Below, one piece after another: positions 10,687 through 40,980 of a stretch of DNA of 44,131 bases (within the stretch, counting starts at the first letter, position 1; the number at the start of each line of letters is the position of its first letter). The notes under the pieces were generated by a model, which was not told the origin of the DNA, did no database searches, and saw nothing but the letters and a program-made list of their open reading frames with translations. The position numbers were made by a program, and so were the translations under genes. This stretch comes from Chloroflexota bacterium (GTDB taxonomy: Bacteria; Chloroflexota; DTOL01; JACQYG01): assembly GCA_040754915.1 (NCBI GenBank), contig JBFMCB010000003.1, positions 1 to 44,131 of the forward strand, written 5' to 3'.

Positions 10687-11217
10687 CTAAAGACCCGTCT
10701 CAGCTCTCCCTTGCTCTTGCGGCGGCCGGTAGTGCAGGCTCTCGATGTCCTCCAGGCGGTCCACGAAGAGGATGCCGTTCAAGTGGTCTACCTCGTGCTG
10801 CAAAGCCCGGGCCAGAATCCCGGCGCCCTTGATCTTAACCGTTCTGCCCCGGCGATCCTGGCACCTGACGACCACCGTCTGCGCGCGCTTGACCTCACCG
10901 TAGTAGTGAGGCAGGCTTAGACAGCCCTCCTCCCTGGTATCCTCACCCTCAGCGTGCAGGATCTCCGGGTTAACCAGGACGTAGAGACGGGTCTTCACTG
11001 GGGCGTTCTCTGTCTCATCGCTGAGGGGGGCCTCAACCACCGCCAAGCGGAGGGGCACCCCGATCTGAGGTGCAGCCAGCCCCAGGCCATTGGCCGCATG
11101 CATGGAATCAACCATATCGGCGATGAGCTTTTGTAAGGAATGATCGAAGTGTTTGACCTTTTGTGATTTCTGTCGCAGCAGCGGGTTCTCGGCATGAAGT
11201 ATAGTGTGTACTGCCAT
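10687..11217 (-). CDS. def: Peptide deformylase
   Basis: GLGLAAPQIG, EGCLS and QHEVDHLNG motifs. ATG at 11217 (MAVHTIL); alternative start 11232. Confidence 0.96.
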   Translation of the reverse strand: MAVHTILHAENPLLRQKSQKVKHFDHSLQKLIADMVDSMHAANGLGLAAPQIGVPLRLAVVEAPLSDETENAPVKTRLYVLVNPEILHAEGEDTREEGCLSLPHYYGEVKRAQTVVVRCQDRRGRTVKIKGAGILARALQHEVDHLNGILFVDRLEDIESLHYRPPQEQGRAETGL

Positions 11218-22153: not shown

Positions 22154-22282
22154 CAGGGAGCAGGGAGCGGCCAGCAAGGGCGAGTCATTGGTCGCCCAAC
22201 ACGATTGGGCTTCTACCCTGCTATCTGCTGCCTGCTTCCCTAAATTTACCCGATGTCCCGGAGTTGAACTCCGGGACATCGG
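22152..22282. repeat. Inverted heptamer arrays followed by a perfect 16-bp inverted repeat
   Basis: agcaggg-type 7-mers (22152-22179) face complementary cctgct-type 7-mers (~22210-22241). Then ccgatgtcccggagtt-g-aactccgggacatcgg (22250-22282). Confidence 0.7.
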
Positions 22283-27442: not shown

Positions 27443-27862
27443 CTACGCGCGCTTATGACTGGTTAACGAGTCCCGTATCTGAGCCGGAATGGGCACCGGT
27501 TTTCCGCTGGCGTCCACGAAGACCTGTACGGTCTTGCCCGTGGCCAGGATTCTCCCTGAATCCTGATTGACCACCTGGTAGCCCAGGGAGAAGCTGCGGT
27601 TTTTCACATCCTCCACCCAGGTCTTGACCGTGATGGCCTCATCGAAATGAGCCGGGGCATGGTAGCGGCAACTGGCCTCGGCGATGACGAAGCCCAGGCC
27701 CGATCTCTCCAACTCAGCATAGTTGAGGCCCAAGGCCTTAAGGTAGTTGACCCGTGCCACCTCGAACCAGATGAAGTAATTGGCGTAGTAGACGATGCCC
27801 TGGGCATCGGTCTCAGCGTATCGGACTCGCAGCTCGGTGACAACCTCGTGGGCATCAGTCAT
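27443..27862 (-). CDS. Acyl-CoA thioesterase, YbgC/4-HBT hotdog family
   Basis: LRVRYAETDAQGIVYYANYFIWFEVAR. Start at ATG 27862, overlapping the upstream paralog. Confidence 0.92.
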   Translation of the reverse strand: MTDAHEVVTELRVRYAETDAQGIVYYANYFIWFEVARVNYLKALGLNYAELERSGLGFVIAEASCRYHAPAHFDEAITVKTWVEDVKNRSFSLGYQVVNQDSGRILATGKTVQVFVDASGKPVPIPAQIRDSLTSHKRA

Positions 27863-28277
27863 GTTCTGGAGATCCCTCAAACAGGGCCCGCATATCCGCT
27901 GGAATGGGGACCGCCCGACCCTGGCAATTCGCACAGACATGCACGGTCTTTCCGGTGGCCAGAAGCTGGCCGGTCCGGCGGTCACGGGCTTCGTAGGCCA
28001 GGACGATCTGGCGGCTGCGAAAGGAATCCAGCCAGGCCCGGACTACTACGTCGTCGCCGTAGCGGGCCGGGGCCAGGTAGCGGGCGCTGATCTCCGTCAC
28101 TGGCAGGTAGTAACCCTTTTTCTCCCAGTGAGTATAGTCTGTGCCGCACTGGCGGAAAAGCTCACCCCGGGCAACCTCGAACCAGATCAGGTAATTGGCG
28201 TGATATACCACGCCCATGGCGTCGGTCTCGGCATAGCGCACCCGCAACGTGACTTCAGCACTGGCCGTCTCAGCCAA
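27855..28277 (-). CDS. Acyl-CoA thioesterase, YbgC/4-HBT hotdog family
   Basis: LRVRYAETDAMGVVYHANYLIWFEVAR. TTG start. Confidence 0.92.
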   Translation of the reverse strand: MAETASAEVTLRVRYAETDAMGVVYHANYLIWFEVARGELFRQCGTDYTHWEKKGYYLPVTEISARYLAPARYGDDVVVRAWLDSFRSRQIVLAYEARDRRTGQLLATGKTVHVCANCQGRAVPIPADMRALFEGSPEHD

Positions 28278-28287
28278 TCTGGCACCT

Positions 28288-29355
28288 CTAGGTCAGGCTG
28301 CCCACGCCAGCGGCCTTGAGTTCGTCCGTGAGCGCCGGGATGACCTGGTATAGGTCACCGGCGATGCCGTAGTCAGCGAACTTGAATATAGCGGCATCGG
28401 GGTTGGAGTTGACGGCCACGATATACTTTGAGCCGCGCATGCCCATCAGGTGCTGGATGGAGCCGGAGATGCCGCAGGCAAAGTACACCCGTGGGCGCAC
28501 GAGGTTGCCCGTTATGCCCACCTGGCGGTCCCTGGTAGCCCAGCCGGCCTCCACCGCGGCCCTGGAGGCGGCCACGGAGCCATTTAGCACCCGGGCCAGT
28601 TCCTCCAAGAGATTGAATCCCTCAGCGGTCCCCAGCCCCCGGCCGCCGGCCACGATGACCTGGGCCTCCTGCAAATCGGCAGGGCGGGGGAACTCATTCA
28701 CCACCCTGCGGGGCTTGACCCTGAGATCGCCATCATCCAGGGAAACCTCGGCTCTCTCCACCGCCCCCTCCCGGGAGGGGTCCGCCTGCATGGCGTGAAG
28801 CACGCCCGGGCGGACCGTGGCCATCTGCGGCCGATGCTGCGGGCAGGCCATGGTGGCCAGCAAGGTGCCGCCGTGGAGGGGCCTGGTGGATAGAAGCAAC
28901 CGCTCCGACTCGTCAATATCGATGGCCACGCAGTCGGTGGTCAACCCGGTGGCCAGTCTCTGAGCCAGGCGAGGGGCGAGGTCGTTGCCATTAGCGGTAG
29001 CCCCCAAGAGGAGTATCTCCGGCTTTTTCTCCTGGATCAAAGCCGCCAGGGCCTTTGTGTACGTCTCGGCAGTGTAAGTCGCCAGAAGTGGGTGCTCGGC
29101 CAGGTGAACCCGGTCCGCGCCGAAGCTGATCAGCTGCTCGGCCAAGGCTTCTACCCTGTCTCCAAGGAGCGCCACTTCCACCCGGGCTCCCAGCCGCTCG
29201 GCCAGCTCCCGAGAGCGTCCCAGTAGCTCTTTGGTCACGCGCAGGAGCTTGCCCTCTCGGTGCTCGGCAACCACCCAGATATGGCGATAGGCGGCCAGGC
29301 CCGTCTCTTCTTCGGCAAGCCCGCCGGTCAACGCCTGTAGATAATCCAAGTCCAT
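28288..29355 (-). CDS. etfA: Electron transfer flavoprotein subunit alpha
   Basis: IWVVAEH, GLTTDC, TRP..GG, RPQMATVRPG, VAGGRG, ASRAAV, QVGITG, GISGSIQH, AVNSNPDAAIF. Confidence 0.95.
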   Translation of the reverse strand: MDLDYLQALTGGLAEEETGLAAYRHIWVVAEHREGKLLRVTKELLGRSRELAERLGARVEVALLGDRVEALAEQLISFGADRVHLAEHPLLATYTAETYTKALAALIQEKKPEILLLGATANGNDLAPRLAQRLATGLTTDCVAIDIDESERLLLSTRPLHGGTLLATMACPQHRPQMATVRPGVLHAMQADPSREGAVERAEVSLDDGDLRVKPRRVVNEFPRPADLQEAQVIVAGGRGLGTAEGFNLLEELARVLNGSVAASRAAVEAGWATRDRQVGITGNLVRPRVYFACGISGSIQHLMGMRGSKYIVAVNSNPDAAIFKFADYGIAGDLYQVIPALTDELKAAGVGSLT

Positions 29356-29384
29356 GGTTTCAAGCCTCCTCTAGGAGATGTGCC

Positions 29385-30209
29385 CTATGAGAGTTCGAGA
29401 TTCGCTATCTCGCGCAGCCTGGCCCAGCGGGCTGGGCCGCTCAGGCATTCTATGGAGCGGATGTCCAGCGGGTCTAGCTCCTGGCGCAGCAGCCTGAGCT
29501 CCTCTGCGGTCGGCGCAGGTGTTTCCTTCAAATCTGGCGCTATGGCCAGGGGGAAACCGGTCTTCGCCTGGATGCTCTCCAGCGTGACCCCGGGATGGTA
29601 GGTGACCAGGCGCAGACGGCCGCCGTTGAAATCGAAGGTGCCCAGGTCACTCACCAGATACCGGCCTTTGGCCGCTGCCCCCGGGCCTCCCAAAGAAACC
29701 CCCAGGCCGCTCTTGAAATCCAACCTTTTCACGAACGTGGCTCGGCCGTGCCGGGGCACGTAGAAGTATAACTCATCGTAGTATGTGGTCACGTCGGCGA
29801 TGCCGCCGCATCCGGGCAGCCGCAGCCGAGGCCGGTGGTAGTTCCCGATGGCCACGTTGTTGGTATTCCCCCAGGGGTCGATCTGCGCTGGCCGCAGGAA
29901 TTCCTTGGGCTTGAGCGTCGGCAGGCATTCGCAAACGATCTCCGGGAAGGTCAGTTGGCGCAAGGCCTTGCCAACCCAGACGTCTTCTATGCCGGAGAGG
30001 GATAAGGGTGCCCAGTCGGAGCAGATGGCATTCCCGATGGCGGAGGCAAATATTATATTTCGCGCGTGGGTGCGCTTGGCCAAAAGATAGGCCGCCATAA
30101 CCAGGGGGGTGGCGATGCCCTGGACCACCACGTCGCCATCGTTGACCTGGTGGGCGATGCAACTGGCCATCAAGTCGGAAACGGTATAATCGGCGGTCAT
30201 CTTTGGCAT
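29385..30209 (-). CDS. Family I CoA-transferase-fold protein, beta subunit (GctB/AibB/IpdB-like)
   Basis: DGDVVVQGIATPL, AKRTHA, AQIDPWGNTN, RLPGCGG, SDLGTFDF, HPGVT...TGF. Confidence 0.85.
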   Translation of the reverse strand: MPKMTADYTVSDLMASCIAHQVNDGDVVVQGIATPLVMAAYLLAKRTHARNIIFASAIGNAICSDWAPLSLSGIEDVWVGKALRQLTFPEIVCECLPTLKPKEFLRPAQIDPWGNTNNVAIGNYHRPRLRLPGCGGIADVTTYYDELYFYVPRHGRATFVKRLDFKSGLGVSLGGPGAAAKGRYLVSDLGTFDFNGGRLRLVTYHPGVTLESIQAKTGFPLAIAPDLKETPAPTAEELRLLRQELDPLDIRSIECLSGPARWARLREIANLELS

Positions 30210-30221
30210 TCCAGCACCTGC

Positions 30222-31016
30222 CTAATCGCTGCCAAGGAAGCGCTCCAGGTAGCCGGGGAAGTCCTCCCGCTGGCAGGCCAGGACGTAGTCCAGTATCTCC
30301 AGGCTGGCCAAGGGGTATAGCGGGAAACAGGACGTGGGCTTGGCCCCGCCGGGGGCCTCTACCACCGCTGTCACCCTGGCGCCAAGCAGGTCGATTTCCC
30401 CACCCAGGTCAGCTGGGGAGTCCACGATGCGTTCGGCGGTGAGCACCATCCGGTTCGCAGTGAGGGCGATGTCGCGATCAATGGCCTTGTTCCCCAAAAG
30501 GCGGGCATTGCCATTCCTATCAGCGATCTGGCAATGTACCACGGCCACATCGGGCCGCAAGGCCGGGAAGGCCACCAACTGTCGCTTCGTGTACGGACAG
30601 GTCACGAGCTCGATGTCGGGCCGGACCGCCAGGATGTCGGTGCCCAGGAGTCCCTGCCCGGGCATGAATCCCACTCCCGCCAGGGTTGCTCTGAGCCCGA
30701 AGGCGATGGTGGCCTCGGTCTCCTCCACCACCTCCAGGCCACCGGAGCTGGCGAGCCTGGTGAACATGGGAGCGAGCCCGAAGGTCTCCAGCCCGAAGTA
30801 GCAGGTGCGAACCCGCCTTACCAGACCGGCCCCCACCAGGAGATCGCTCTCGAAGCCGCCGGTGAGCTCCAATAGCGTTAGCTCACCAACCCGCTGGCGA
30901 AGGAGTTCTCGGACGAAGGCCACCGGGCGGCGATAGAGCGTCATGCCACCCAGGGCCAGGATATCGCCCGGACGAACCAACTCGACCGCCTCTCGAAGGG
31001 TGATGATCTTGGACAA
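30222..31016 (-). CDS. Family I CoA-transferase-fold protein, alpha subunit (GctA/AibA/IpdA-like)
   Basis: MSKIITLREAV..VRPGD.LALGG, DLLVGAG, CPYT, PALRPDVAVVH..ADRNGN, TAERIV, GAKPTSC. Confidence 0.88.
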   Translation of the reverse strand: MSKIITLREAVELVRPGDILALGGMTLYRRPVAFVRELLRQRVGELTLLELTGGFESDLLVGAGLVRRVRTCYFGLETFGLAPMFTRLASSGGLEVVEETEATIAFGLRATLAGVGFMPGQGLLGTDILAVRPDIELVTCPYTKRQLVAFPALRPDVAVVHCQIADRNGNARLLGNKAIDRDIALTANRMVLTAERIVDSPADLGGEIDLLGARVTAVVEAPGGAKPTSCFPLYPLASLEILDYVLACQREDFPGYLERFLGSD

Positions 31017-31036
31017 CTTTCCCTACTATAAAGAGC

Positions 31037-31831
31037 TTAAACCAAGTTCTTCGCCCGCAGCCGGCCCACCAGGGCTCTGGCCTGCTCCTGGGGGCTGCCG
31101 GTCAACATCTCCGGAGGCCCTTTGGGCTCGGGCACCGTGCTAGCTCGTATCTGAGTGGCAGAGCCAGCGGCGCCTACCTTCTGTGGTTCCAGGCCCAGGT
31201 CCTGGGCGGTCCAGACCACGAACTTTTCAGATCCTGGTGGCTCCTGGTAGGCGTTCATTATCCGGGCACCATGGGGCAGTCGCGGCAGGTTAGCGGCGCT
31301 GTTCACGGTGACCAGGGCGGGCAGCGCCACCTCCACCTCCAGATAGCTATCCTCCAGGACCCTTTTGGCAAGGACGGAGCCGTTGTCTATCTCAAGGGCA
31401 CTGACATTGGTGACTTGAGGATAACCCAGACACTCAGCCAGGCGAGGGCCAACCTGGGCGTTGGTGCCGTGGCCGGAGAGCTGCCCGGCCAGGATCAGGT
31501 CGGGCAAGCCGATCCTATGGATGGCAGAGCCCAGGGCGTAGGTGGTGGCCAGGGCATCAGGATCGGCGAAGGCCGGGTCGGAGAGCAGGTAGGCCCGGTC
31601 CGCCCCCATGGCCAGGGCCTCCCTCAAAGCCTCCTCCGCCTCCGGTGGGCCCAGGGAAAGCACGGTTACCCTGGCGCCCAACGAGTCTTTCAATTTCAGG
31701 GCCTCCTCCAGGGCCCTCAGGTCGTCAGGATTAATGATCAAGGGGACCCCTGCGGTGACCAGCCTGCCCTGGCGGGAGACCCGAAGCTTTGTAGGATCGT
31801 GTATCTGCTTGACTAGGACGATTATCTCCAT
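31037..31831 (-). CDS. etfB: Electron transfer flavoprotein subunit beta
   Basis: IVLVKQI.D, GVPLIINPDD..ALEEALKLK, ALAMGAD, QVGP, LPALVTV, PR.P, GS.T. Confidence 0.93.
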   Translation of the reverse strand: MEIIVLVKQIHDPTKLRVSRQGRLVTAGVPLIINPDDLRALEEALKLKDSLGARVTVLSLGPPEAEEALREALAMGADRAYLLSDPAFADPDALATTYALGSAIHRIGLPDLILAGQLSGHGTNAQVGPRLAECLGYPQVTNVSALEIDNGSVLAKRVLEDSYLEVEVALPALVTVNSAANLPRLPHGARIMNAYQEPPGSEKFVVWTAQDLGLEPQKVGAAGSATQIRASTVPEPKGPPEMLTGSPQEQARALVGRLRAKNLV

Positions 31832-31847
31832 TCTGCTCTCCTATATC

Positions 31848-31977
31848 TGTCATTGCGAGCCGAAGCGAAGCAATCTCATTGCACCTGGGGATTGCGGAGC
31901 CTGTTCCGAGCGAAGCGAGGAATCCCCGAGTTTGCTTCGGCTCCGCCTCGCAATCGCTCCGGCTCCTCGCAATGACA
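31848..31977. repeat. REP/MITE-like palindromic element with 12-bp terminal inverted repeats
   Basis: tgtcattgcgag (31848-31859) and ctcgcaatgaca (31966-31977), with nested inverted pairs gattgcg/cgcaatc and ggagcc/ggctcc and internal gcgaagc units. Confidence 0.8.
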
Positions 31978-32017
31978 TCTGCCATCTCTCCTATCGAGGT
32001 TATCTCTCGCTATCCCC

Positions 32018-33184
32018 TCAAGGGCTGATGCGGACGCCGACCTGGCGGAAGATGTCGGCGGCCACTACGATGCGCTGCACCTCATTTGTCCCTTCGAAGA
32101 TCTCGGCGATGCGCGCATCCCGGTAGCCGCGCTCGATGGCAAACCCCCGCATGTAGCCCATCCCGCCATGGATCTGCACCGCCCGATCGATGCAGCGTGA
32201 TGCCACCTCGGAGCCGTAGAATTTGCAGATAGCGGCCTCGCGGCTGAAAGGCCGACCGGTGTCCACCATCCAGGCCGTGCGATACACCAACGAGCGGAGC
32301 GCCTCGATCTCTGCCGACATCTCCGCCACCATCCACTGGATCGCCTGCTTCTGGGCGATGGGGACGCCGAATTGTTGGCGCTGGGAGGCAAAGTGCACGC
32401 TCATCTCCAGGGCCGCTTGCGCGCCGCCCAGGCAGGCCGCAGCCAGGCTTACGCGGCCGATGTCCAGGGTCTTCATGGCGGTGACAAACCCGGCCCCAAA
32501 GGTGCCTAACACGTTCTCTTTGGGCACCCGGCAATCGTTGAAGATCAGTTCCGCAGTGGAGGAGCCTCGGATCCCCATTTTCTCCTCTATGCTGCCGATG
32601 GAGAAACCGGGGAAATCTTTCTCCACGATGAAGGCAGTGACACCACCGCGGGCACCTAGGGCTTTGTCGGTGACGGCGAAGACCGAGATCACGTCGGCGA
32701 TATCGCCATTGGTGATCCAGATCTTGTTGCCGTTGAGCACGTAGTAGTCGCCGTCGCGAACCGCCATGGTGCGGATGGCGGCCGCGTCGGAGCCGGCCTG
32801 GGGCTCGGTGAGGGCAAAGGCAGCGATCTTCTCCCCCTTGGCCAGAGGGGTCAGATACTTTTTCTTTTGCTCCGGTGTTCCATCCAGGTAGATGGCCATG
32901 GCCCCAATGCCGGTATGGGCGCCAATGACGGTGGCAGTGGAGGTGCAGACCTTACCCAGCTCCTCCATCAGGATGCAATAGCCGATCTCTCCAGCGCCGA
33001 CGCCTCCGTATTCCTGGGGGAACGGGACGCCCATGAGCCCGAGCTGGGCCGCCTTGCGCACCGTTTCCATTGGCACCCTCTCCGTCTCGTCTATCTCCGT
33101 GGCCAGGGGCCGCACCTCGCGCTCGGCGAATTCCCGGATCATCTTGCGCAACAGCTCATGTTCCTTACTGAAAGTGAAGTCCAT
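32018..33184 (-). CDS. Acyl-CoA dehydrogenase (butyryl-CoA dehydrogenase-like)
   Basis: FALTEPQAGSDA, LNGNKIWITNG, EEKMGIRGS, RQQFG, IFEGTNEVQR (catalytic Glu). Confidence 0.96.
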   Translation of the reverse strand: MDFTFSKEHELLRKMIREFAEREVRPLATEIDETERVPMETVRKAAQLGLMGVPFPQEYGGVGAGEIGYCILMEELGKVCTSTATVIGAHTGIGAMAIYLDGTPEQKKKYLTPLAKGEKIAAFALTEPQAGSDAAAIRTMAVRDGDYYVLNGNKIWITNGDIADVISVFAVTDKALGARGGVTAFIVEKDFPGFSIGSIEEKMGIRGSSTAELIFNDCRVPKENVLGTFGAGFVTAMKTLDIGRVSLAAACLGGAQAALEMSVHFASQRQQFGVPIAQKQAIQWMVAEMSAEIEALRSLVYRTAWMVDTGRPFSREAAICKFYGSEVASRCIDRAVQIHGGMGYMRGFAIERGYRDARIAEIFEGTNEVQRIVVAADIFRQVGVRISP

Positions 33185-33194
33185 GCCATACCTC

Positions 33195-34361
33195 CTACGG
33201 CATCAACCGCACTCCGACCTCTTTGAACAGGTCCGAGGCGATGACGAAACGCTGGATCTCGTTGGTACCCTCGAAGATCTCGGTGATGCGAGCATCTCGA
33301 TAATATCGTTCGATAGGAAAGCGCTTCATGTAGCCCATGCCGCCGTGGACCTGGACAGCCTTGTTCACCGCCCGCACCAAGATCTGAGAGCCCCACAGCT
33401 TGCACATGGCGGCCTCCCGGCTATATTTCTTGCCCATCTCGGCCAACCAGGCGGCGTGATAGACCATGTGGCGCAGAGATTCGATCTCCGTGGCCATGTC
33501 GGCGATGATAAATTGAATGGCCTGCTTGTTGGCGATGGGCCCGCCGAACTGCTGGCGCTGGGAGGCGAATTCAATGCTGGCCTTGAGGGCCGCCTGGGCA
33601 CCGCCCAGACAGGAGGCGCCAATGCTCAAGCGCCCGAAGTCCAGGGTCCTCATGGCGGTGAGAAAGCCCAGGCCCGGGCGGCCGCCCAGGAGGTTCGCAA
33701 CGGGGACGCGGCAGTCGTCGTAGAAGAGCTGGCAGGTGCTGGTGCCCCGCAGCCCCATTTTTTTCTCGCGCCAGCCCACCTTGAAGCCCGGGAAGTCCTT
33801 CTCTACGATGAAGGCGGAGATGCCCCGGGCGCCGGAGCCCTTGCTGGTGACGGCAAAGGTAACAATGAGGTCGGCGATGTCCCCGTTGGTGATCCAGGTC
33901 TTGGAGCCGTTCAATACGTAGTAGTCGCCATCTCTGACCGCGGAGGTAGTGATGCTGGCGGCGTCGGAGCCAGCATTGGGCTCGGTGAGCGCGAAGGCGG
34001 CCAGCTTCTCGCCCTTGGCCAGGGGCGTCAGGTACTTCTGTTTTTGCTCCTCGGTGCCGTCCAGGTAAATGGTCATGGCGCCCACGCCCACATCCACCCC
34101 GATGGTGCCAGCGGTGGCGGAGCAGACCTTGCCCAACTCCTCCATCATGATACAATAGGTGATGATGCCGGCATCAACCCCCCCGTACTTCTCTGGGAAG
34201 AGGATGCCGAAGAGATCGAGCTTGGCTGCTTTTTTCAAGGTTTCCAGAGGCGGACGCTCCTCCCGGTCCAGGGTCTCCGCCAGGGGCAGGACCTCTTTTT
34301 GGGCGAAATCCCGCACCATCTCCCGGAACATCTCTTGCTCTTCCGTAAAGGTAAAATCCAT
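33195..34361 (-). CDS. Acyl-CoA dehydrogenase (butyryl-CoA dehydrogenase-like)
   Basis: FALTEPNAGSDA, LNGSKTWITNG, EKKMGLRG, RQQFG, IFEGTNEIQR. Confidence 0.96.
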   Translation of the reverse strand: MDFTFTEEQEMFREMVRDFAQKEVLPLAETLDREERPPLETLKKAAKLDLFGILFPEKYGGVDAGIITYCIMMEELGKVCSATAGTIGVDVGVGAMTIYLDGTEEQKQKYLTPLAKGEKLAAFALTEPNAGSDAASITTSAVRDGDYYVLNGSKTWITNGDIADLIVTFAVTSKGSGARGISAFIVEKDFPGFKVGWREKKMGLRGTSTCQLFYDDCRVPVANLLGGRPGLGFLTAMRTLDFGRLSIGASCLGGAQAALKASIEFASQRQQFGGPIANKQAIQFIIADMATEIESLRHMVYHAAWLAEMGKKYSREAAMCKLWGSQILVRAVNKAVQVHGGMGYMKRFPIERYYRDARITEIFEGTNEIQRFVIASDLFKEVGVRLMP

Positions 34362-34376
34362 GTCCTACCTCCAGCC

Positions 34377-35900
34377 TTAACCTCTTAACTCGCTTTTGAG
34401 GATTTTGCCTGTCCCGCCCTTGGGCAGGGATTCCCGGAACTCCACAGTGCGCGGGTACTTGAAAGAGGCCATTCGTTCCTTGCAGTAGTCGATGATCTCC
34501 TGCTCGCTGGCGGACATCCCGGGTTTCAGGACCACGAAGGCCTTGACCTCCTCCCCCAGGGCCTCCTCCGGAACACCCACCACGGCTGCTTCCGCGATGG
34601 CGGGATGGCCGTACAGGACCTCTTCGACCTCCCGGGGATAAACGTTGAAGCCACCTCGCAGGATCATGTCTTTCTTGCGATCGACGATGAAGAAGTAACC
34701 GTCCTCATCCAGCCGGGCGATGTCCCCGGTGTGGAACCATCCGTTCTTCATGGCTTCGGCCGTGGCCTCGGGCCGTTTGTAATACCCCTTCATCACGTTA
34801 TGGCCGCGGATCACGATCTCCCCTAATTCACCGGGCGGCACGGGCACGTCGTTAGCGTCCACGGCTTTCATCTCGGTGCCCCAGATGGGCAGGCCGATGG
34901 AGCCCGGCTTCCTGGGGCGTTCGCGCACGTTGAATGACGCCACCGGCGAGGTCTCCGAAAGGCCATAGCCCTCCAGGATGACCACGTTGTACTTGCGCTC
35001 GAAGCCCTTCATCACCTCCACTGGGATAGCCGCGCCGCCGGAGACGCAGAGGCGCAGGGAACTGACGTCGTACTTGCCGGCATCGGGATAGTTCAGCAAG
35101 TAGAAATACATGGTGGGCACTCCGGCGAAGATGGTGACCTTGTCCCGCTGGAAGATCTCCAGGGCCTGCTCCGGCTCGAACCTGGGCAGCATGGTCAGAG
35201 TGGCGCCGGCGTAAAAGGTCATGTTCATGGCACAGGTCTGCCCGAAGGAATGAAAGAGCGGCAGGGCGGCGATGGAAACGTCCTGGGGCGTCACCCCCAG
35301 GAGACGATCAGCGCAGAAGGCCGCGTTGTAGAACATATTGAAATGGGTCAGCTCGGCGCCCTTGGGCCGGCCGGTGGTGCCGGAGGTGTACAGCAGCACC
35401 GCCGTGTCGTCGGGCATGGTCCAGGCCATCTCGAAAGCTGGCGAGGCTACGGCCGAGAAGGCGCCGAAGGAGAGGGCGCCGTCAGGGAGGTAGTCGCTGC
35501 CGGGGGCGTTCACTACGATGAGGTGCTTGCAGGTCTCCGTGGCGGCCCAGCCCTTGTGGGCCTCTGCGGCGACGGCCTCCCAGGTGAACAGGGCAACGGC
35601 GTCCGAATCCTCCAGGTGGTACTGGATCTCGCCCGCTTTAAACTGGACGTTCAAGGGCACGACGGTGGCGCCGAGCTTGAGGATGCCGTAGTAAACGATG
35701 GGGAATTGGGGCACGTTCGGGAGCATCATGGCTACCTTGTCGCCACGTTGAACGCCCAGGGAGCGCAGGGCGTTGGCCACCTTGTTGCTGGCCGCATTTA
35801 GCTCTCCATAGGACATCCGTTTCTCGTCCATGATGATCGCGGTCTTGGCCGGGTCACGTTTGGCGCTTTCGTTCATTATCAATGCCAGGTTTAAAGACAT
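34377..35900 (-). CDS. Long-chain-fatty-acid--CoA ligase (AMP-forming, FadD/LcfB-like)
   Basis: YTSGTTGRPKG, LPLFHSFG, EGYGLSETSP, WFHTGDI, IVDRKKDMILRGGFNVYPREVE, GKILK. Confidence 0.95.
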   Translation of the reverse strand: MSLNLALIMNESAKRDPAKTAIIMDEKRMSYGELNAASNKVANALRSLGVQRGDKVAMMLPNVPQFPIVYYGILKLGATVVPLNVQFKAGEIQYHLEDSDAVALFTWEAVAAEAHKGWAATETCKHLIVVNAPGSDYLPDGALSFGAFSAVASPAFEMAWTMPDDTAVLLYTSGTTGRPKGAELTHFNMFYNAAFCADRLLGVTPQDVSIAALPLFHSFGQTCAMNMTFYAGATLTMLPRFEPEQALEIFQRDKVTIFAGVPTMYFYLLNYPDAGKYDVSSLRLCVSGGAAIPVEVMKGFERKYNVVILEGYGLSETSPVASFNVRERPRKPGSIGLPIWGTEMKAVDANDVPVPPGELGEIVIRGHNVMKGYYKRPEATAEAMKNGWFHTGDIARLDEDGYFFIVDRKKDMILRGGFNVYPREVEEVLYGHPAIAEAAVVGVPEEALGEEVKAFVVLKPGMSASEQEIIDYCKERMASFKYPRTVEFRESLPKGGTGKILKSELRG

Positions 35901-35918
35901 GGGCCATCTCCTAGAGAA

Positions 35919-36005
35919 TGTAGTCCTGGGTCCTTAGTCATTGGTCATTGGTCCGTGGTCGTTAGTCAACGGACTACGGACTATGGACCACGGACTACGG
36001 ACTAC
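35919..36005. repeat. Heptamer-periodic palindromic element, copy 1
   Basis: Seven 7-mers ending in gtc (tgtagtc ctgggtc cttagtc attggtc attggtc cgtggtc gttagtc), then aac, then five complementary ggacYaY 7-mers. Confidence 0.85.
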
Positions 36006-36791
36006 CTATCTATCCTGAAACTTCGGCTGGCGCTTCTGCAGGAATGCCGCGACGCCCTCGCGCATGTCCTCGGTCGCGGTGATGGCGGCGAAGCCGTCAG
36101 CCTCCAGGAGCAGGCCTTTCTCCAGGGAGGTCTGCAGTCCCCGGTCTACCACCTCCATGATCTTGCCCACCGCCACCTGGCCCTTGGTGAGGACCTTCTT
36201 GGCCAGGTCTTTAGCTGCCTTCACCACCTCGCCCTCGGGGACCACCTTGTTCACCAGCCCAATGCGATGGGCCTCCTGGGCGGTGATCATGTCGCCAGTC
36301 AGGAGCATCTCCAGGGCCTTGGCCTTGCCGACGAGGCGGGGCAGGCGCTGGGTGCCGCCGAAACCGGGGATGATCCCCAGGTTGATCTCGGGCTGGCCAA
36401 AGCGTGCCCGGTCGGTAGCCACCCGCATGTGGCAGGCCATGGCTAGCTCGTTGCCGCCTCCCAGGCAGACGCTGTTGATGGCAGCGATCACCGGCTTGCG
36501 CATGTTCTCGATCTTGTTTAGTATTCCCTGGCCCATGAGCACCACGGCCCGGGCATCTTCCGATCCCTTGAGCGCGGCGATCTCGTTGATGTCGGCGCCG
36601 GCGACGAAGGCGTATTGGCCGGCGCCGGTGATGACGATGGCCTTCACGCCATCGTCGGCGGCCAGCTCGTCCAGGGCGCTATTCAACTCCTGCATGGTAG
36701 GGGTGTTCAGGGCATTGACCGGGGGATGGTCAATCGTCAACACGGCAATGCGGTCTTCCACGCTGATCTTGATGTACTGGCGCTCGGTCAT
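36006..36791 (-). CDS. Enoyl-CoA hydratase (crotonase)
   Basis: FVAGADI, KPVIAAIN, LGGGNELAMACH, FGQPEINLGIIPGFGGTQRL (both catalytic Glu). ATG 36791 after AAGGAG. Confidence 0.95.
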   Translation of the reverse strand: MTERQYIKISVEDRIAVLTIDHPPVNALNTPTMQELNSALDELAADDGVKAIVITGAGQYAFVAGADINEIAALKGSEDARAVVLMGQGILNKIENMRKPVIAAINSVCLGGGNELAMACHMRVATDRARFGQPEINLGIIPGFGGTQRLPRLVGKAKALEMLLTGDMITAQEAHRIGLVNKVVPEGEVVKAAKDLAKKVLTKGQVAVGKIMEVVDRGLQTSLEKGLLLEADGFAAITATEDMREGVAAFLQKRQPKFQDR

Positions 36792-36840
36792 TTTCGTCTC
36801 CTTACTTGAGTTTATTGCTTGAATGGCCAATCATACTGGT

Positions 36841-36880
36841 GAATTCCAATTTCGAATTGCGAAATTCGAATTTCGAAATC
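36841..36880. repeat. Short tandem heptamer repeat (aatttcg-type)
   Basis: gaattcc aatttcg aattgcg aaattcg aatttcg aaatc in the dehydrogenase-hydratase spacer. Confidence 0.7.
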
Positions 36881-36883
36881 ATA

Positions 36884-38110
36884 TTAGGTCGTATACTCGC
36901 TGAACCCCTTCCCGACCTTCTTGCCCAGGTGTCCGGCCCGGACCTTAGTGCGCAGCAGCCGGGCTGGCCGGAAGCGCTCGCCGTACTGCTTCTGGAACTC
37001 CTCGAGTTTTTGCACGACGGTGTCCAGCCCCATCTCATCGGCCAACTGCAGGGGGCCCATAGCCGTGTCACCCTTCCTCATGCCGGTGCCGGCGATCATG
37101 GCCATGTTGATGTCGCCGGCCTTGGCGATATTCTCTTGTAAGGCCAGCACCGCCTCGTTGATCAGAGGCAGCATCAGCCGGTCCACGCCGAAGGTCGTCC
37201 CTTTGACCGCTTTGCCCTCCGCCTGAACCTCTTTGATCATCTGCTTGACCGGCTCATCGGTCTGGTCACCGTAGCCGTAGAAGCCAGCCCCCGCCTTCTC
37301 GCCTAACCGCCCGGCTGCCACCAGCTTGTGGAACAGGGCTGCAGGGGTCACGCGGTCGCCGTATTCGGCGTATAGGTATTCGCCCACGTCGTAGCAGATG
37401 TCAATGCCCAGCATATCCATCAGGGTGAAGGGGCCCATGGGCCAGCCAAACTCCACCATGGCCGTGTCGATCTCCTCCGCCGTGGCCGCGCCCTCCTGCA
37501 GGCACAGGACGGCCTCGTTCAGGTAGGGCATCAGGAGCCGGTTCACCAGGAAGCCCGGGCACTCCTGGACCACCACCGGGATCTTCCGGAGCGATTCGGT
37601 GAACATAACCACGTCGTCGATGGTCTCCTGGTTGGTGTCCAGGCCGGGGATCACCTCCACCAGCTTCATCACGTGGGCGGGGTTGAAGAAGTGCATGCCG
37701 ATCATCTTGTGGGGCCGCTTGGTGGCCGCGCCCATCTCGGAGATGGAAAGAGCCGAGGTATTGGAGGCGAAGATGGTGCCCTCCGGGCAGACCCTGTCCA
37801 GCTCGGCGAAGACCTGTTTCTTGATGCCCATCTTCTCGGGCACCGCCTCGATGACGATGTCCACATCGCTGAAATCGGCATAGCTCGTGGTGGCCGTGAC
37901 CAGGTCCATCTTTGACTGCATGTCAGCGGCGCTCATTTTGCCCTTGTCCACCCGCCCCTGATAAATGGCCCTGATCTTCTCGACGCCCTTGTCCACCAAT
38001 GCCTGATTGACATCCTTAATCACCACCGGCAAGCCAGAGAAGGTGACTACCTGGGCGATACCTGCGCCCATGGCCCCGGCGCCGACCACGCCGGCCTTGA
38101 AAATGTACAT
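36884..38110 (-). CDS. 3-hydroxyacyl-CoA dehydrogenase with a duplicated C-terminal domain
   Basis: GAGAMGAGIA, IEAVPE..K, ASNTSAL, GMHFFNP, PGFLVNRLL, and two copies of the NEA..ID/N.AM..MGP..D..G.D..G.LG.K.G.GF domain. Confidence 0.94.
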   Translation of the reverse strand: MYIFKAGVVGAGAMGAGIAQVVTFSGLPVVIKDVNQALVDKGVEKIRAIYQGRVDKGKMSAADMQSKMDLVTATTSYADFSDVDIVIEAVPEKMGIKKQVFAELDRVCPEGTIFASNTSALSISEMGAATKRPHKMIGMHFFNPAHVMKLVEVIPGLDTNQETIDDVVMFTESLRKIPVVVQECPGFLVNRLLMPYLNEAVLCLQEGAATAEEIDTAMVEFGWPMGPFTLMDMLGIDICYDVGEYLYAEYGDRVTPAALFHKLVAAGRLGEKAGAGFYGYGDQTDEPVKQMIKEVQAEGKAVKGTTFGVDRLMLPLINEAVLALQENIAKAGDINMAMIAGTGMRKGDTAMGPLQLADEMGLDTVVQKLEEFQKQYGERFRPARLLRTKVRAGHLGKKVGKGFSEYTT

Positions 38111-38128
38111 GGCTCGACCTCCTTGTTG

Positions 38129-39328
38129 TTATTTCCTCTCCACGACAATCGCCCCTCCCTGGCCGCCGCCCACGCACATGGTGGCCAGGCCAAAGTGCAG
38201 GCCCCGCTTCTTCATTTCGTGGAGCAACGTCACCGCGATGCGCGCCCCCGAGCACCCCACCGGATGCCCCAGGGCTATGGCGCCGCCGTTGACGTTCACC
38301 TTGTTCCAGTCCCAGCCGTCGTCCTTGAGGACTTTGCCTACGGCCAGGCACTGAGCGGCGAAGGCCTCGTTGAGCTCGATGAGGTCAATGTCGGTGAGCT
38401 TGAGCCCGGCCCGCTTGAGGGCCTTGGGCACAGCCACGGTGGGACCGATGCCCATGACCTCCGGCCCCACCCCCCCATAGGCATAGGCCCGGATGTAGCC
38501 CATGATCTCCAGCCCCAGGGACTTGGCGCGGTCCGCGGTCATGACCAGCAAGGCCGCCGCCCCATCGCTGATGGGGCAGGCGTTGCCGGGGGTAACGGTG
38601 CCGTTTTCCTTGAAGACCGTGGGGTAAAGCGCCAGCTTTTGCACGGAGATGGCGGGGTTGATGCACTCGTCCTGGGTGATGGGCTCGGAGGCCACCTCTT
38701 TGCCGGCTACCCTCTTGGCAACCATCACCGGGACGATCTCATCTTTAAACTTGCCGGTGCGGGTGGCCATGAAGGCCTTCTTGTGGCTCTCCACCGCGAA
38801 CTGGTCCTGCTCCTCCCGGCTGATGTTGTACATATCGGCCAGGTTTTCTGCGGTGCGGCCCATGATCTGGTTCACCACCGGGTCGGTGAGGCCCTCCCAC
38901 AGCACGTCGATGAACTGGGTGTGCCGCAGCTTCAGGCCCCAGCGAGCTCCCCGCACCATGTACGGGGCGGAGCTCATGCTCTCCGCGCCGCCCACCAGGT
39001 AGGAATCACCATGGTTCACCTGGATGCCCTCGTAGGCGCTGGTGATGGCTTGCAGGCCCGAGGCGCAATTGCGCTGCACGGTGAAGCCGGTGACCTCCTT
39101 GGGGATGCCGGCGTTCAGTGACGCCACCCGGGCCATGTTAGGGGCGTCGCTGGTCTGCATGCAACAGCCAAAGATCACTTCCTCCAGGCCGGCGGGGTCA
39201 ACCTGGGTGCGTTTGAGCACTTCCTGCATCACGATCTTGGCCAGCTCATGGGCAGCAACATCCTTCAGCGCCCCACCGTGGGCGCCGATGGGCGTGCGCA
39301 CGCCGCCTACCAGGACCACTTCTTTCAC
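38129..39328 (-). CDS. Acetyl-CoA C-acyltransferase (thiolase)
   Basis: RTPIG, RNCASGL (catalytic Cys), GGAESMS, MGRTAE, ELNEAFA, NVNGGAIALGHPVG, MCVGGGQG. GTG start at 39328 after AGGAGG. Confidence 0.96.
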   Translation of the reverse strand: MKEVVLVGGVRTPIGAHGGALKDVAAHELAKIVMQEVLKRTQVDPAGLEEVIFGCCMQTSDAPNMARVASLNAGIPKEVTGFTVQRNCASGLQAITSAYEGIQVNHGDSYLVGGAESMSSAPYMVRGARWGLKLRHTQFIDVLWEGLTDPVVNQIMGRTAENLADMYNISREEQDQFAVESHKKAFMATRTGKFKDEIVPVMVAKRVAGKEVASEPITQDECINPAISVQKLALYPTVFKENGTVTPGNACPISDGAAALLVMTADRAKSLGLEIMGYIRAYAYGGVGPEVMGIGPTVAVPKALKRAGLKLTDIDLIELNEAFAAQCLAVGKVLKDDGWDWNKVNVNGGAIALGHPVGCSGARIAVTLLHEMKKRGLHFGLATMCVGGGQGGAIVVERK

Positions 39329-39374
39329 TAAACACCTCCTTGTGAAGTTGAAAACGGGTTCGCATTCGGGGGTC

Positions 39375-39425
39375 AAAAAGCAAAGCGAGGGGGACTGGCA
39401 GATGTGGTCACCAGGAACCCCTCGC
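39375..39425 (-). terminator. Intrinsic terminator within the 5' leader of the acyl-CoA operon (attenuator)
   Basis: RNA GCGAGGGG-UUC-CUGG-loop-CCAG-UC-CCCCUCGC followed by UUUGCUUUUU. It lies downstream of the predicted promoter and about 45 nt upstream of the thiolase start. Confidence 0.7.
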
Positions 39426-39540
39426 CTGAACGATGGTACGTAATCGTGGCCGTGAGGTGGCAGGACACGGTAGCAAATGTCACTATCCAGAGCTCCTTAG
39501 GCGGGTCTGGAACGGGATACGTGATCGGCCTTCCTGCCGT
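39375..39540 (-). ncRNA. Candidate cis-regulatory leader RNA (riboswitch- or attenuator-like, unassigned class)
   Basis: Nested helices GGCAGGA/UCCUGCC enclosing UCAC(G)UAUCC/GGAUAGUGA or UCCAGA/UCUGGA, then an ACGAU/AUCGU hairpin and a terminator. Confidence 0.45.
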
Positions 39541-39562
39541 AAAAACAGTTAATCTAATATTA

Positions 39563-39592
39563 ATTTTAGCGTTTGGCGGCTACAAAAGTCAA
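39563..39592 (-). promoter_or_regulatory. Sigma-A-type promoter of the acyl-CoA operon
   Basis: Minus strand TTGACT (39587-39592), 18 nt spacer, TAAAAT (39563-39568), in an AT-rich patch. Confidence 0.65.
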
Positions 39593-39594
39593 CA

Positions 39595-39612
39595 TGGTGC
39601 AATATTTCACAA
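39595..39612. promoter_or_regulatory. Rex-like operator
   Basis: TGGTGCAATATTTCACAA has two mismatches to the Rex consensus TTGTGAAnnnnTTCACAA and sits 2 nt upstream of the -35. Confidence 0.6.
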
Positions 39613-39717
39613 AGTTCCGGGCACTTGGCGAGGGGTGTGGTATGAATGCGGCGCCTGGCCGCTATAGTCTTATGCCGTGGTGCCTCGAGACGGTTCCGGA
39701 CGAGAGCATCTCTTTGT

Positions 39718-40980
39718 TCAGCGGGACATGGCTGACTGTAGTTTCCTTCGGAGCCGCTGCCGGCGATGTTCTAGTTCGCGTGCTTCAATCCCATCCCGAT
39801 CTGTTTCGCTCACGGCTCGACGCCAATCCAGGACGGCCAGGGCTCGGCTTACGCTAGCCTCAGCAGCCCGGTAGTCGTGTTGATGATGTTCGTGGTATTT
39901 GGCGAGTTCCACGTAAGGATAGAGCACCGCTTCAGGTTTAGTGGCGATCAGGTCTAGCCAGATTGTCGCCGCCTTTTCCAATTGCCCGGTGCGTTTTAAC
40001 AGAAAGCCTAAGTGCCGCTGAGCTTTTTCCCGGACCTCTGGGGTGGTAGTGGCGTCAGCCGCCATCTCATAGGCCCTTTGGCTGTCTAGCGGCCGGCCAG
40101 TCTTTTCGAAAAGCAGGCCCAGGCTAAGAAAATCTTCCGGCTCGTTGACCAGGCCCCCGAAAGGATTGGTGAGGATAGCGCAAAGCTGGATAGTTAAGGC
40201 CAAAAGAGAGACTACGTCCTGGACATTATGGTAGAAGACTTGGCGCAGGCAACTGGCATCGCCGAGGCGCAGGTATTGGAAGTAGAGGCTGGGTATGAGC
40301 CAACTGGGGACGTCCTCTTCCCTTTCCACCTCAAGGATATGTCGCTCCAAACTGGGCAGGGCACAGGATCCCAGCCGTCTTCGCCAGAGCCGGCGGGAGG
40401 GGAACAGGAGGTCCAGGTGTGGCGGGTCCACCAGCCCCATTGACATTCGCGAATAGACGAAACGGGTGGTGAGAAGTGGCCAGTCGAAGGCCTTTCCGTT
40501 GAAGGTGACGATGCCCCGAAAGCGCCCCAGCAGATCGTTGACGTTAGCCAGAAAGGCTTTTTCCTGGTCGTAGTCCCGCAGAAAAAACTGCTGGAGGCGG
40601 AATTCAGCCCCCTCCAGGTAGCCAATGCCTACCAGGAAGACGTAGGTGCCGGTGCCGCCGGATAGCCCGGTGGTCTCGGTGTCCAGAAAGGCAAGCTGCT
40701 CCAGCGGGATACTGCTCAGGGGCGGCTCGCTGGCCAAGAGGGCCGCCGCCTCGCTGGAGTAAATCCCGGCGGGGTCCAGGAGGACGCGGCCGTGCCGGTA
40801 GGTCAAGGGCAAGTACCGTTCGGTGACAAAGCATTCCCCCCACGCCGAACGCGCATAGGTGCCCTTTATGACCTGATCTATGGGAACTGATGGTTCAGCT
40901 CTGGGCTTCGAGGCCAGCCTGATCACCCGGCCGCTGCCCACCTCCACGCCCAGGCTCCGCAATCGCTCGTAGATATCCAT
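39718..40980 (-). CDS. RNase H-like (DEDD) exonuclease with C-terminal TPR-like helices, YprB/MrfB-like
   Basis: FLDTETTGLSGGTGTYVFLVG, TFNGKAFD, HLDLL, HNVQDV, and C-terminal ELAKYHEH. Confidence 0.85.
   Translation of the reverse strand: MDIYERLRSLGVEVGSGRVIRLASKPRAEPSVPIDQVIKGTYARSAWGECFVTERYLPLTYRHGRVLLDPAGIYSSEAAALLASEPPLSSIPLEQLAFLDTETTGLSGGTGTYVFLVGIGYLEGAEFRLQQFFLRDYDQEKAFLANVNDLLGRFRGIVTFNGKAFDWPLLTTRFVYSRMSMGLVDPPHLDLLFPSRRLWRRRLGSCALPSLERHILEVEREEDVPSWLIPSLYFQYLRLGDASCLRQVFYHNVQDVVSLLALTIQLCAILTNPFGGLVNEPEDFLSLGLLFEKTGRPLDSQRAYEMAADATTTPEVREKAQRHLGFLLKRTGQLEKAATIWLDLIATKPEAVLYPYVELAKYHEHHQHDYRAAEASVSRALAVLDWRRAVSETDRDGIEARELEHRRQRLRRKLQSAMSR

Follow-up and report, generated by a model that had tools for sequence, protein, structure and literature searches.

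How does an uncultured Anaerolineae bacterium (Chloroflexota) control a 12-kb acyl-CoA operon that appears to be preceded by more than 200 nt of structured leader? The question is posed by the minus-strand leader of a thiolase-headed operon in a stretch of 44,131 nt (the window, by which we mean the whole stretch of DNA that was analysed), which comes from a genome that is 93% complete (G000). An earlier note, made from the sequence alone, had described here a promoter, a closed 5′ domain, a potential antiterminator and a terminator, and had proposed that together they form an unassigned cis-regulatory RNA. All of the elements it claimed are present on the minus strand where it had placed them, and RNAfold returns the claimed helices both for the whole leader and for a transcript that ends before the 3′ arm of the terminator. 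Our analysis leads us to read the leader as a lineage-specific transcription attenuator behind a redox-controlled promoter. The earlier proposal stands with respect to the terminator/antiterminator geometry and the lack of an Rfam family, but not with respect to the 5′ domain as a ligand-binding aptamer.

The scans for described families support the earlier statement that none (T-box, SAM, FMN, TPP, cobalamin, c-di-GMP or ZTP) is recognisable at this locus. Rfam gave no match at gathering score anywhere in the window and none at E values up to 1 in 16 orthologous loci; at E values up to 10, the region 39200-39800 yielded only sR48, a chance match on the opposite strand (16.8 bits vs a cutoff of 40 bits, E 2.6). 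On present evidence, the leader is thus best described as a new lineage-specific leader attenuator, neither a member of a described family nor a new riboswitch class.

A conserved intrinsic terminator

The strongest element of the leader is its last one:

39375 to 39426, minus strand: intrinsic terminator, consisting of a hairpin (39426-39384) and the U-tract UUGCUUUUU (39383-39375), identified by RNAfold, identity within the genus and homologous stems

The arms of the stem, GCGAGGGG and CCCCUCGC, are followed by UUUGCUUUUU, which ends at 39375 and lies 46 nt before the GTG at 39328, in agreement with the distance of about 45 nt given earlier. The hairpin has a predicted energy of −24.2 kcal/mol and an outer stem of nine pairs; it has a z-score of −3.06, with only 1 of 200 shuffled sequences folding as well, and it is the only part of the leader whose folding energy exceeds chance by this comparison. 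For the whole leader, whose minimum free energy structure contains the helices described in the earlier note, the z-score is −1.41, with 20 of 200 shuffles as good. The hairpin escaped the promoter-scan tool, which allows loops of up to 8 nt only. A stable G+C-rich hairpin with a U-tract directly after it on the sense strand is what defines an intrinsic terminator, and a 1-nt deletion that occurs in the C-run of the 3′ arm in contigs assembled from sequencing runs leaves the stem intact.

Relatives of the operon provide the evidence that this hairpin has been maintained. From 160 loci we retained 52 thiolase upstream regions, 53 with that of the window, for which the protein is at least 59% identical, the match starts within the first six residues and the upstream sequence extends for about 200 nt or more; among those left out as truncated are L036, L042, L048, L119, L128, L129, L141, L142, L146, L150 and L151. 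The 200 nt that precede each thiolase start were examined for terminator-like hairpins, counted as such if they have a T-rich tail and an energy of −14 kcal/mol or lower. Of the 53 regions, 25 have one on the sense strand and 9 on the antisense strand; with the cutoff at −20 kcal/mol, these numbers become 17 and 3. An outer stem of the form GGCRAGGG/CCCYUGCC, with a U-rich tail after it, is common to 20 Anaerolineae thiolase leaders that fall into four sequence groups: A, the genus of the window (4 leaders), B (7), C (6) and D (3). At stem position 4, groups A and D have a G-C pair where B and C have A-U; the pair at the foot of the stem is A-U in groups A and C and in 3/3 group D leaders and C-G in group B, so that two stem positions have changed on both sides between groups. 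The shared stem also contains G-U pairs, which would be A-C mismatches on the other strand, so it fits the sense RNA only. In group B, RNAalifold finds 30 pairs of which 9 are compensatory, all of them within the terminator hairpin. The earlier note had staked its switch model on conserved structure in orthologous leaders, and for the terminator this structure is found, compensatory changes included.

These stems were tabulated from the fold of each individual sequence, rather than from a covariance model of the hairpin, because MAFFT alignments across groups are reliable at the terminator only, with the 3′ arms off by two columns in A4. In two of the loci (L032 and L033) the upstream gene is divergent, so that the hairpin there cannot be its terminator. 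Upstream of the hairpin, groups A-D cannot be aligned, and sister genera carry unrelated sequence there. As judged from these comparisons, what has been conserved in the 5′ leader is an intrinsic terminator, and the putative sensor region turns over between genera. We therefore consider the leader of the window to carry a real and evolutionarily conserved signal to stop transcription, which probably serves as an on/off attenuator.

The other groups have leaders of their own making. In group B (L032, L033, L114, L116, L117, L120 and L136) a near-invariant block, GCAAUGAUGCUUGAGGAGAGGAGAGUGCA (GCAAUGAUGCUUGAGG...), is followed by a purine/pyrimidine hairpin with a U-tract and then by the conserved terminator, giving two terminator-like hairpins in tandem; most of these leaders contain an open reading frame (ORF) that starts at the AUGAUG of the block and extends to the second terminator. 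The upstream blocks of groups C and D are different. Within the genome of the window, a regular-expression scan found hairpins with a GGCRAGG stem at a handful of other intergenic sites, several of them at ordinary gene ends. This stem does not rank with the commonest ones when perfect 7-bp hairpins followed by a T-rich tail are counted across the genome, and a regulon of GGCRAGG hairpins was discarded as an idea, as the genome scan gave no sign of one.

The leader upstream of the terminator

Two further structures are predicted between the presumed start of transcription and the terminator:

39459 to 39538, minus strand: 5′ domain, an irregular 80-nt hairpin closed by GGCAGGA (39538-39532) and UCCUGCC (39465-39459), which form P1, from RNAfold

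39417 to 39458, minus strand: predicted antiterminator, ACCUC...GGGGU plus GCC/GGC around an ACGAU/AUCGU hairpin, from a fold without the 3′ arm of the terminator

Inside the 5′ domain, UCAC-G-UAUCC pairs with GGAUAGUGA, or alternatively UCCAGA pairs with UCUGGA; the domain as a whole has an energy of −27.6 kcal/mol and a z-score of −1.80 (11 of 200 shuffles as good). The segment after the domain reads CCUC-ACG-GCC-ACGAU-loop-AUCGU-UCA-GGC-GAGG, as the earlier note had given it. The antiterminator helix (−12.4 kcal/mol, z −1.28, 22 of 200 shuffles as good) would use GGC and GGGG from the 5′ arm of the terminator, and RNAfold forms it in all four sequences of the genus once the 3′ arm of the terminator is withheld. 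The two structures are thus predicted to be mutually exclusive, at −12.4 vs −24.2 kcal/mol, as would be expected of a terminator/antiterminator platform.

The leader sequence itself was found only within its own genus. A DNA search of 61 Chloroflexota genomes (a set that includes G039, unpublished and counted only as a genome without a match) recovered it in G001 at 92% and G002 at 91% identity, and it was also present in one of 80 genome loci searched by blastn with 7-nt words (L031) and in L111 among the metagenome loci, both from the same genus. We also built a covariance model, R1, of the 5′ domain and antiterminator, which has a short reach because its four input sequences share at least 91% identity. 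Of 75 thiolase loci, R1 matched L111 alone (next best E 0.39), and of the 61 genomes it matched only G000, G001 and G002 (next best E 0.5); neither R1 nor the DNA search found another copy or target of the leader in its own genome. An aptamer conserved across taxa with covariation was not found with this model, which has limited reach, being made from four near-identical sequences.

Comparison of the genome with those of two other species of the genus shows how conservation is distributed. Identity is 78-79% in the non-coding DNA that precedes the promoter region and 75% over the initial 24 nt of the presumed transcript. The 5′ domain then reaches 92.5-93.8%, against 75-79% for the flanking non-coding DNA, the antiterminator 93.8%, the terminator 96-98% and the segment down to the Shine-Dalgarno sequence 91-93%; third codon positions of the thiolase gene are 91-92% identical. 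Between G001 and G000, there are 12 differences in the 210 nt from P1 to the Shine-Dalgarno sequence and 29 in 132 nt of flanking non-coding DNA. The pattern indicates that purifying selection acts in this genus on the leader from P1 onward, although this selection cannot be assigned to the proposed helices from the substitutions at hand: of the 41 pairs of the 5′ domain and antiterminator, four vary on one side through wobble and two terminal pairs break, each in one sequence. No RNA run was found to contain the stretch, and DNA contigs from four sequencing runs added similar variants and no compensatory pair.

Promoter and putative Rex operator

Transcription is likely to be initiated from a single site, next to which lies a second candidate control element:

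39563 to 39592, minus strand: sigma-70-type promoter, TTGACT-18-TAAAAT, from the promoter scan (10/12 match)

39595 to 39612, minus strand: Rex-like operator TTGTGAAATATTGCACCA, ending 2 nt before the −35 box

The promoter claimed in the earlier note scores as a sigma-70-type site, with its −35 box TTGACT at 39592-39587, an 18-nt spacer and its −10 box TAAAAT at 39568-39563. It is the only promoter-like site between 38900 and 40100, where shuffled sequences contain 0.3 ± 0.6, and no second site occurs between the terminator and the thiolase gene. Both hexamers are invariant within the genus while the spacer varies. A start near 39556 would give a leader of about 228 nt up to the thiolase GTG.

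The putative operator matches the Rex-type repeat TTGTGA-N6-TCACAA at 10 of 12 specified bases (two mismatches). It is invariant across the three genomes of the genus, with a neighbouring spacer that varies. Rex-like boxes with zero or one mismatch lie at the same position in all seven group B leaders and in L037, L039, L125 and L127 (leader groups B and E), and promoter-adjacent boxes with at most two mismatches occur in 14 of the 53 thiolase upstream regions (groups A, B and E). A homologue of Rex is present in the genome as a 208-aa ORF that matches PF06971 at 70 bits. The available passages on Rex give the consensus TTGTGAAW4TTCACAA (PMC2883068) and place Rex boxes in clostridia upstream of thiolase genes and of crt-bcd-etfBA-hbd (PMC5367854). 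Because the position of the box is conserved, a Rex gene is present and clostridial thiolase operons have Rex boxes, we consider the promoter to be probably Rex-controlled, with the NADH/NAD+ ratio sensed at the DNA level. The nicotinamide cofactor that the earlier note had listed among conceivable RNA ligands is therefore more simply sensed at the promoter, where that note had missed the overlapping Rex-like operator. Elsewhere in the window, 11161-11178 holds a second Rex-like site, TTGTGATTTCTGTCGCAG, with two mismatches, which is at chance level.

Operon and genomic setting

The genes around the leader, as assigned from Pfam scans and reading of the sequence, are arranged as follows:

39718 to 40980, minus strand: upstream gene of the RNase_H_2 superfamily (Pfam scan), ending at 39718

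39326 to 39341, minus strand: Shine-Dalgarno sequence AAGGAGG of the thiolase gene (39341-39335, read from the sequence) and its GTG start (39328-39326, read from the sequence and Pfam)

27443 to 39328, minus strand: downstream operon (Pfam scans of ORFs)

The operon, which is of the beta-oxidation (fatty-acid breakdown) type, encodes, in this order, a thiolase, a 3-hydroxyacyl-CoA dehydrogenase, an enoyl-CoA hydratase, an acyl-CoA synthetase, two acyl-CoA dehydrogenases, electron transfer flavoprotein (ETF) beta, two CoA-transferase subunits, ETF alpha and a thioesterase. The ORFs lie on the same strand with tight spacing, which suggests that they are co-transcribed. The pair of CoA-transferase subunit genes (within 27443-31831) is inserted between those for ETF beta and ETF alpha, and the 4HBT thioesterase gene closes the operon, with a second ORF directly before it that appears similar by reading only. 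At 39334-39345, the thiolase AAGGAG can form part of a hexaloop that has A as its first and G as its fourth base and is closed by CAC/GUG; this stem has only 3 bp, and hence is probably a chance feature.

Away from the operon, 22252-22280 is a perfect palindrome, with 3 nt between GATGTCCCGGAGT and its reverse complement. The window contains one copy (2 matches vs 0.07 expected), and others occur throughout the genome, where its stems (CCCGGAG, TCCCGGA, GATGTCC and others) are the commonest perfect 7-bp hairpins, with about 200-290 counts each. It looks like a repeated palindromic element of the REP type.

Discussion

The reading that we favour, and to which we assign a probability of about one half, is two-tier control in which a Rex-type operator at the promoter is followed by a default-off terminator, with read-through governed by a weak antiterminator and a further input. 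The operator at the edge of the −35 box would put initiation under the NADH/NAD+ ratio. Transcripts that are initiated would then cross a leader with a strong intrinsic terminator at its end, about 180 nt in all, and by default most of them would stop at about 39375, leaving the operon OFF. For polymerase to read through into the 12-kb acyl-CoA operon, the helix 39458-39417 would have to hold the 5′ arm of the terminator, and because this antiterminator is only about half as stable as the terminator, it would need an input that favours it. Such an input would act on the genus-specific 5′ domain that lies beside the antiterminator. We suspect that it is a trans-acting factor or a kinetic input rather than a ligand of a widely conserved metabolite aptamer, since it is the terminator and not the sensor region that has been kept between genera.

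A number of observations weigh against this account. The Rex-like box is at chance level within the window (2 matches vs 0.78 expected, 16 of 100 shuffles as good), and 37 sites in the genome have at most two mismatches to the Rex-type repeat. Neither the antiterminator nor the 5′ domain is more stable than shuffled sequence, and none of their 41 pairs has changed on both sides in the four sequences, a comparison in which the controls had no power. In run X3, one contig has a G to A change at 39534 by which a P1 pair would be lost. A consistent antiterminator was looked for in groups B, C and D and none was seen. Group C leaders have a poor U-tract (UCUUUAUCG), and their hairpin is separated from the ribosome-binding site by about 10 nt, so that it may act on translation or stability instead. 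Finally, the leader groups consist of related sequences, so their counts are not independent, and the −10 boxes that define the starts of leaders were picked by eye.

How else might the leader work? The central idea of the earlier note, that the domain 39538-39459 binds CoA, an acyl-CoA or another small molecule and thereby shifts the balance between antiterminator and terminator, now appears unlikely to us. A closed domain, an antiterminator and a terminator do make up the classical riboswitch layout, and the domain, which is about fourfold better conserved than the flanking non-coding DNA of the genus and keeps pairing by wobble at four of six substituted paired sites, belongs to no known Rfam family; a substrate-induced catabolic operon would also suit an ON switch, and among those titles that were listed in the literature search there was no description of such an acyl-CoA/thiolase leader class. 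But the candidate aptamer is single-copy and confined to one genus by both blastn and R1 (with its short reach), its folding energy is within chance, none of its pairs shows compensatory change, and sister leaders keep the terminator next to unrelated upstream sequence, all of which speaks against an aptamer. A bolder version, which we regard as a long shot, is that the leader is the first natural RNA switch for the CoA/acyl-CoA pool, standing in for the TetR/FadR-type repressor that heads such operons elsewhere and combining a terminator that is kept with a fast-evolving, genus-specific ligand domain; if true, the rapid evolution of that domain would explain why comparative searches built on conserved aptamers missed the switch. 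At the other extreme, the terminator could be constitutive, generating a separate RNA of about 180 nt (a small RNA or a damped leader) with fixed read-through, so that regulation falls to Rex alone. This simple view draws on the fact that the terminator is the sole strongly supported and widely conserved RNA element, that no effector can be named and the antiterminator is weak, and that GGCRAGG-stem hairpins are also seen at ordinary intergenic sites and gene ends. We nevertheless judge it improbable, given that a strong terminator before a 12-gene operon would be costly, that selection in the genus extends to the 5′ domain and the segment after the terminator, and that no other copy of the leader or target for it was found in the genome.

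The remaining alternatives look for the input in a translated leader or in a particular RNA-binding protein. The relevant frame is the following:

39373 to 39483, minus strand: upstream ORF of 36 codons with a GTG start, AAGGAG 9 nt before it and a TGA just after the U-tract, from ORF reading

This ORF starts inside the 5′ domain and spans the antiterminator and the terminator, and ribosomes that keep pace with polymerase on it (39483-39373) could block the terminator hairpin, in which case the operon would respond to translational capacity or amino-acid supply. Translation of this kind would explain why the terminator alone is conserved, and leaders of groups B, C1 and C2 can also be read as having an upstream ORF, equipped with a Shine-Dalgarno-like sequence, whose end lies within the conserved hairpin or directly before it; moreover, the candidate start codons of groups A and B each lie in a 5-bp hairpin of similar form with the loop A-R-U-G-A-Y, and the stems of the two groups differ by two compensatory pairs. 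The ORF is not constrained as a protein, however, because variants in the genus comprise 8 non-synonymous changes against 1 synonymous (tallied by hand) and contigs of two runs carry a frameshifting 1-nt deletion at 39389. It also has no run of one regulatory codon, and neither the peptide nor the frame is conserved; no upstream ORF was seen that is common to all of group D, one of the seven group B leaders has none, and, by a rough estimate, chance alone would give each 200-nt leader about one Shine-Dalgarno sequence with a start codon. We consequently think translational coupling quite unlikely. As to proteins, the genome encodes a HisKA_2 kinase next to a REC-ANTAR response regulator of 195 aa (L196, G000:C4:5573-8731, ORFs 16-1050 and 1102-1689), the only ANTAR protein found in it, and no CAT_RBD, CsrA or G3P_antiterm protein was found in the 93% that is available. 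According to the passages at hand, an ANTAR target consists of two hairpins whose hexaloops have A at position 1 and G at position 4, separated by a linker of 2-25 nt, with the second overlapping the terminator (PMC8934654; PMC8164766), and a single hexaloop has been proposed as the minimal binding motif (PMC8934654). Hairpins with such loops occur at leader positions 18-33, 74-89 and 219-230. The dual motif was rejected for this leader, since no hexaloop hairpin overlaps the terminator and the linkers exceed 25 nt. That leaves the hairpin at 74-89, UGGAU-AGUGAC-AUUUG (39489-39474), which holds the candidate start codon of the upstream ORF and could be bound by the single REC-ANTAR regulator as a minimal motif. 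A 5-bp hairpin with the A-R-U-G-A-Y loop is present in 4/4 group A leaders and, with 5-6 bp, in 4/7 of group B, where one more has 3 bp; the group B form, UGRGC-AAUGAU-GCUUG, lies at a similar position with a similar loop and has two stem pairs changed on both sides. Yet the hairpin of the window has three G-U pairs and competes with the stabler P2 helix, short-stem hexaloops of the A1/G4 type are expected by chance about once per leader (an estimate), and the dual-hexaloop motif that is defining in those sources is absent. Antitermination by the ANTAR protein therefore strikes us as very improbable. Two-tier control by a Rex-type operator and a default-off terminator remains the explanation that we favour.

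Anaerolineae are abundant and mostly uncultured bacteria of sediments, groundwater and digesters, and to our knowledge gene regulation in them is almost unstudied. We know of no earlier description of transcription attenuation for genes of fatty-acid or butyrate breakdown, and a literature search, among the part of its titles that was listed, returned none. A terminator that is kept across several genera before the same operon, combined with a promoter that probably senses redox state, offers a concrete and cheap experimental target. Should a small-molecule effector exist, the long-standing gap of a CoA/acyl-CoA riboswitch would be filled; should there be none, the leader would still represent a clear case of a conserved expression platform with a sensing part that turns over.

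Comparison with known systems

The leader invites comparison with four kinds of regulatory system. Its overall plan is that of the terminator/antiterminator leaders of Gram-positive bacteria, a category that includes riboswitch expression platforms, T-box leaders and protein-dependent attenuators such as BglG/LicT targets. As in these, a long 5′ leader has a structured domain and, after it, a terminator shortly before the ribosome-binding site, and an upstream segment can pair with the 5′ arm of the terminator. Unlike them, the leader of the window has no Rfam match and a sensor region limited to one genus, and the only cognate protein family found in its genome is the single ANTAR regulator, whose motif the leader lacks. 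A more specific likeness is to the ANTAR-target RNAs (EutV and the eut leaders, and those of actinobacteria), in which an antiterminator likewise competes with an intrinsic terminator; the leader of the window has a hexaloop hairpin of the A1/G4 type and the genome a REC-ANTAR regulator, but relative to the motif as the available passages define it, a second hexaloop hairpin within 2-25 nt is missing and none overlaps the terminator.

At the level of the promoter, the closest parallel is with the Rex-repressed thiolase/butyryl-CoA operons of clostridia. In the available passages on these, an inverted repeat of the TTGTGAA-N4-TTCACAA type is located at the promoter (PMC2883068, PMC5367854) of an operon for thiolase, hydroxyacyl-CoA dehydrogenase, crotonase, acyl-CoA dehydrogenase and ETF (PMC5367854), an arrangement that the window shares in its operon and, if the putative operator is real, also at its promoter. 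The putative operator of the window differs in having two mismatches, and the promoter is followed by a leader terminator, whereas none is mentioned for clostridia in those passages of PMC5367854.

The last comparison is with control of beta-oxidation by TetR-family (FadR-like) repressors, which serve the same type of operon. In a clade of Anaerolineae whose thiolase is 64-66% identical to that of the window, a TetR gene lies directly upstream in all seven loci tested (L038, L040, L041, L043, L044, L046 and L047), with the TetR ORFs ending 20-120 nt before the thiolase start. These TetR-headed loci have no leader terminator, whereas the operon of the window has no TetR gene and its genome holds only distant relatives of the repressor (36% identity). 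By analogy, the leader may fill the role that an acyl-CoA-responsive TetR repressor plays elsewhere.

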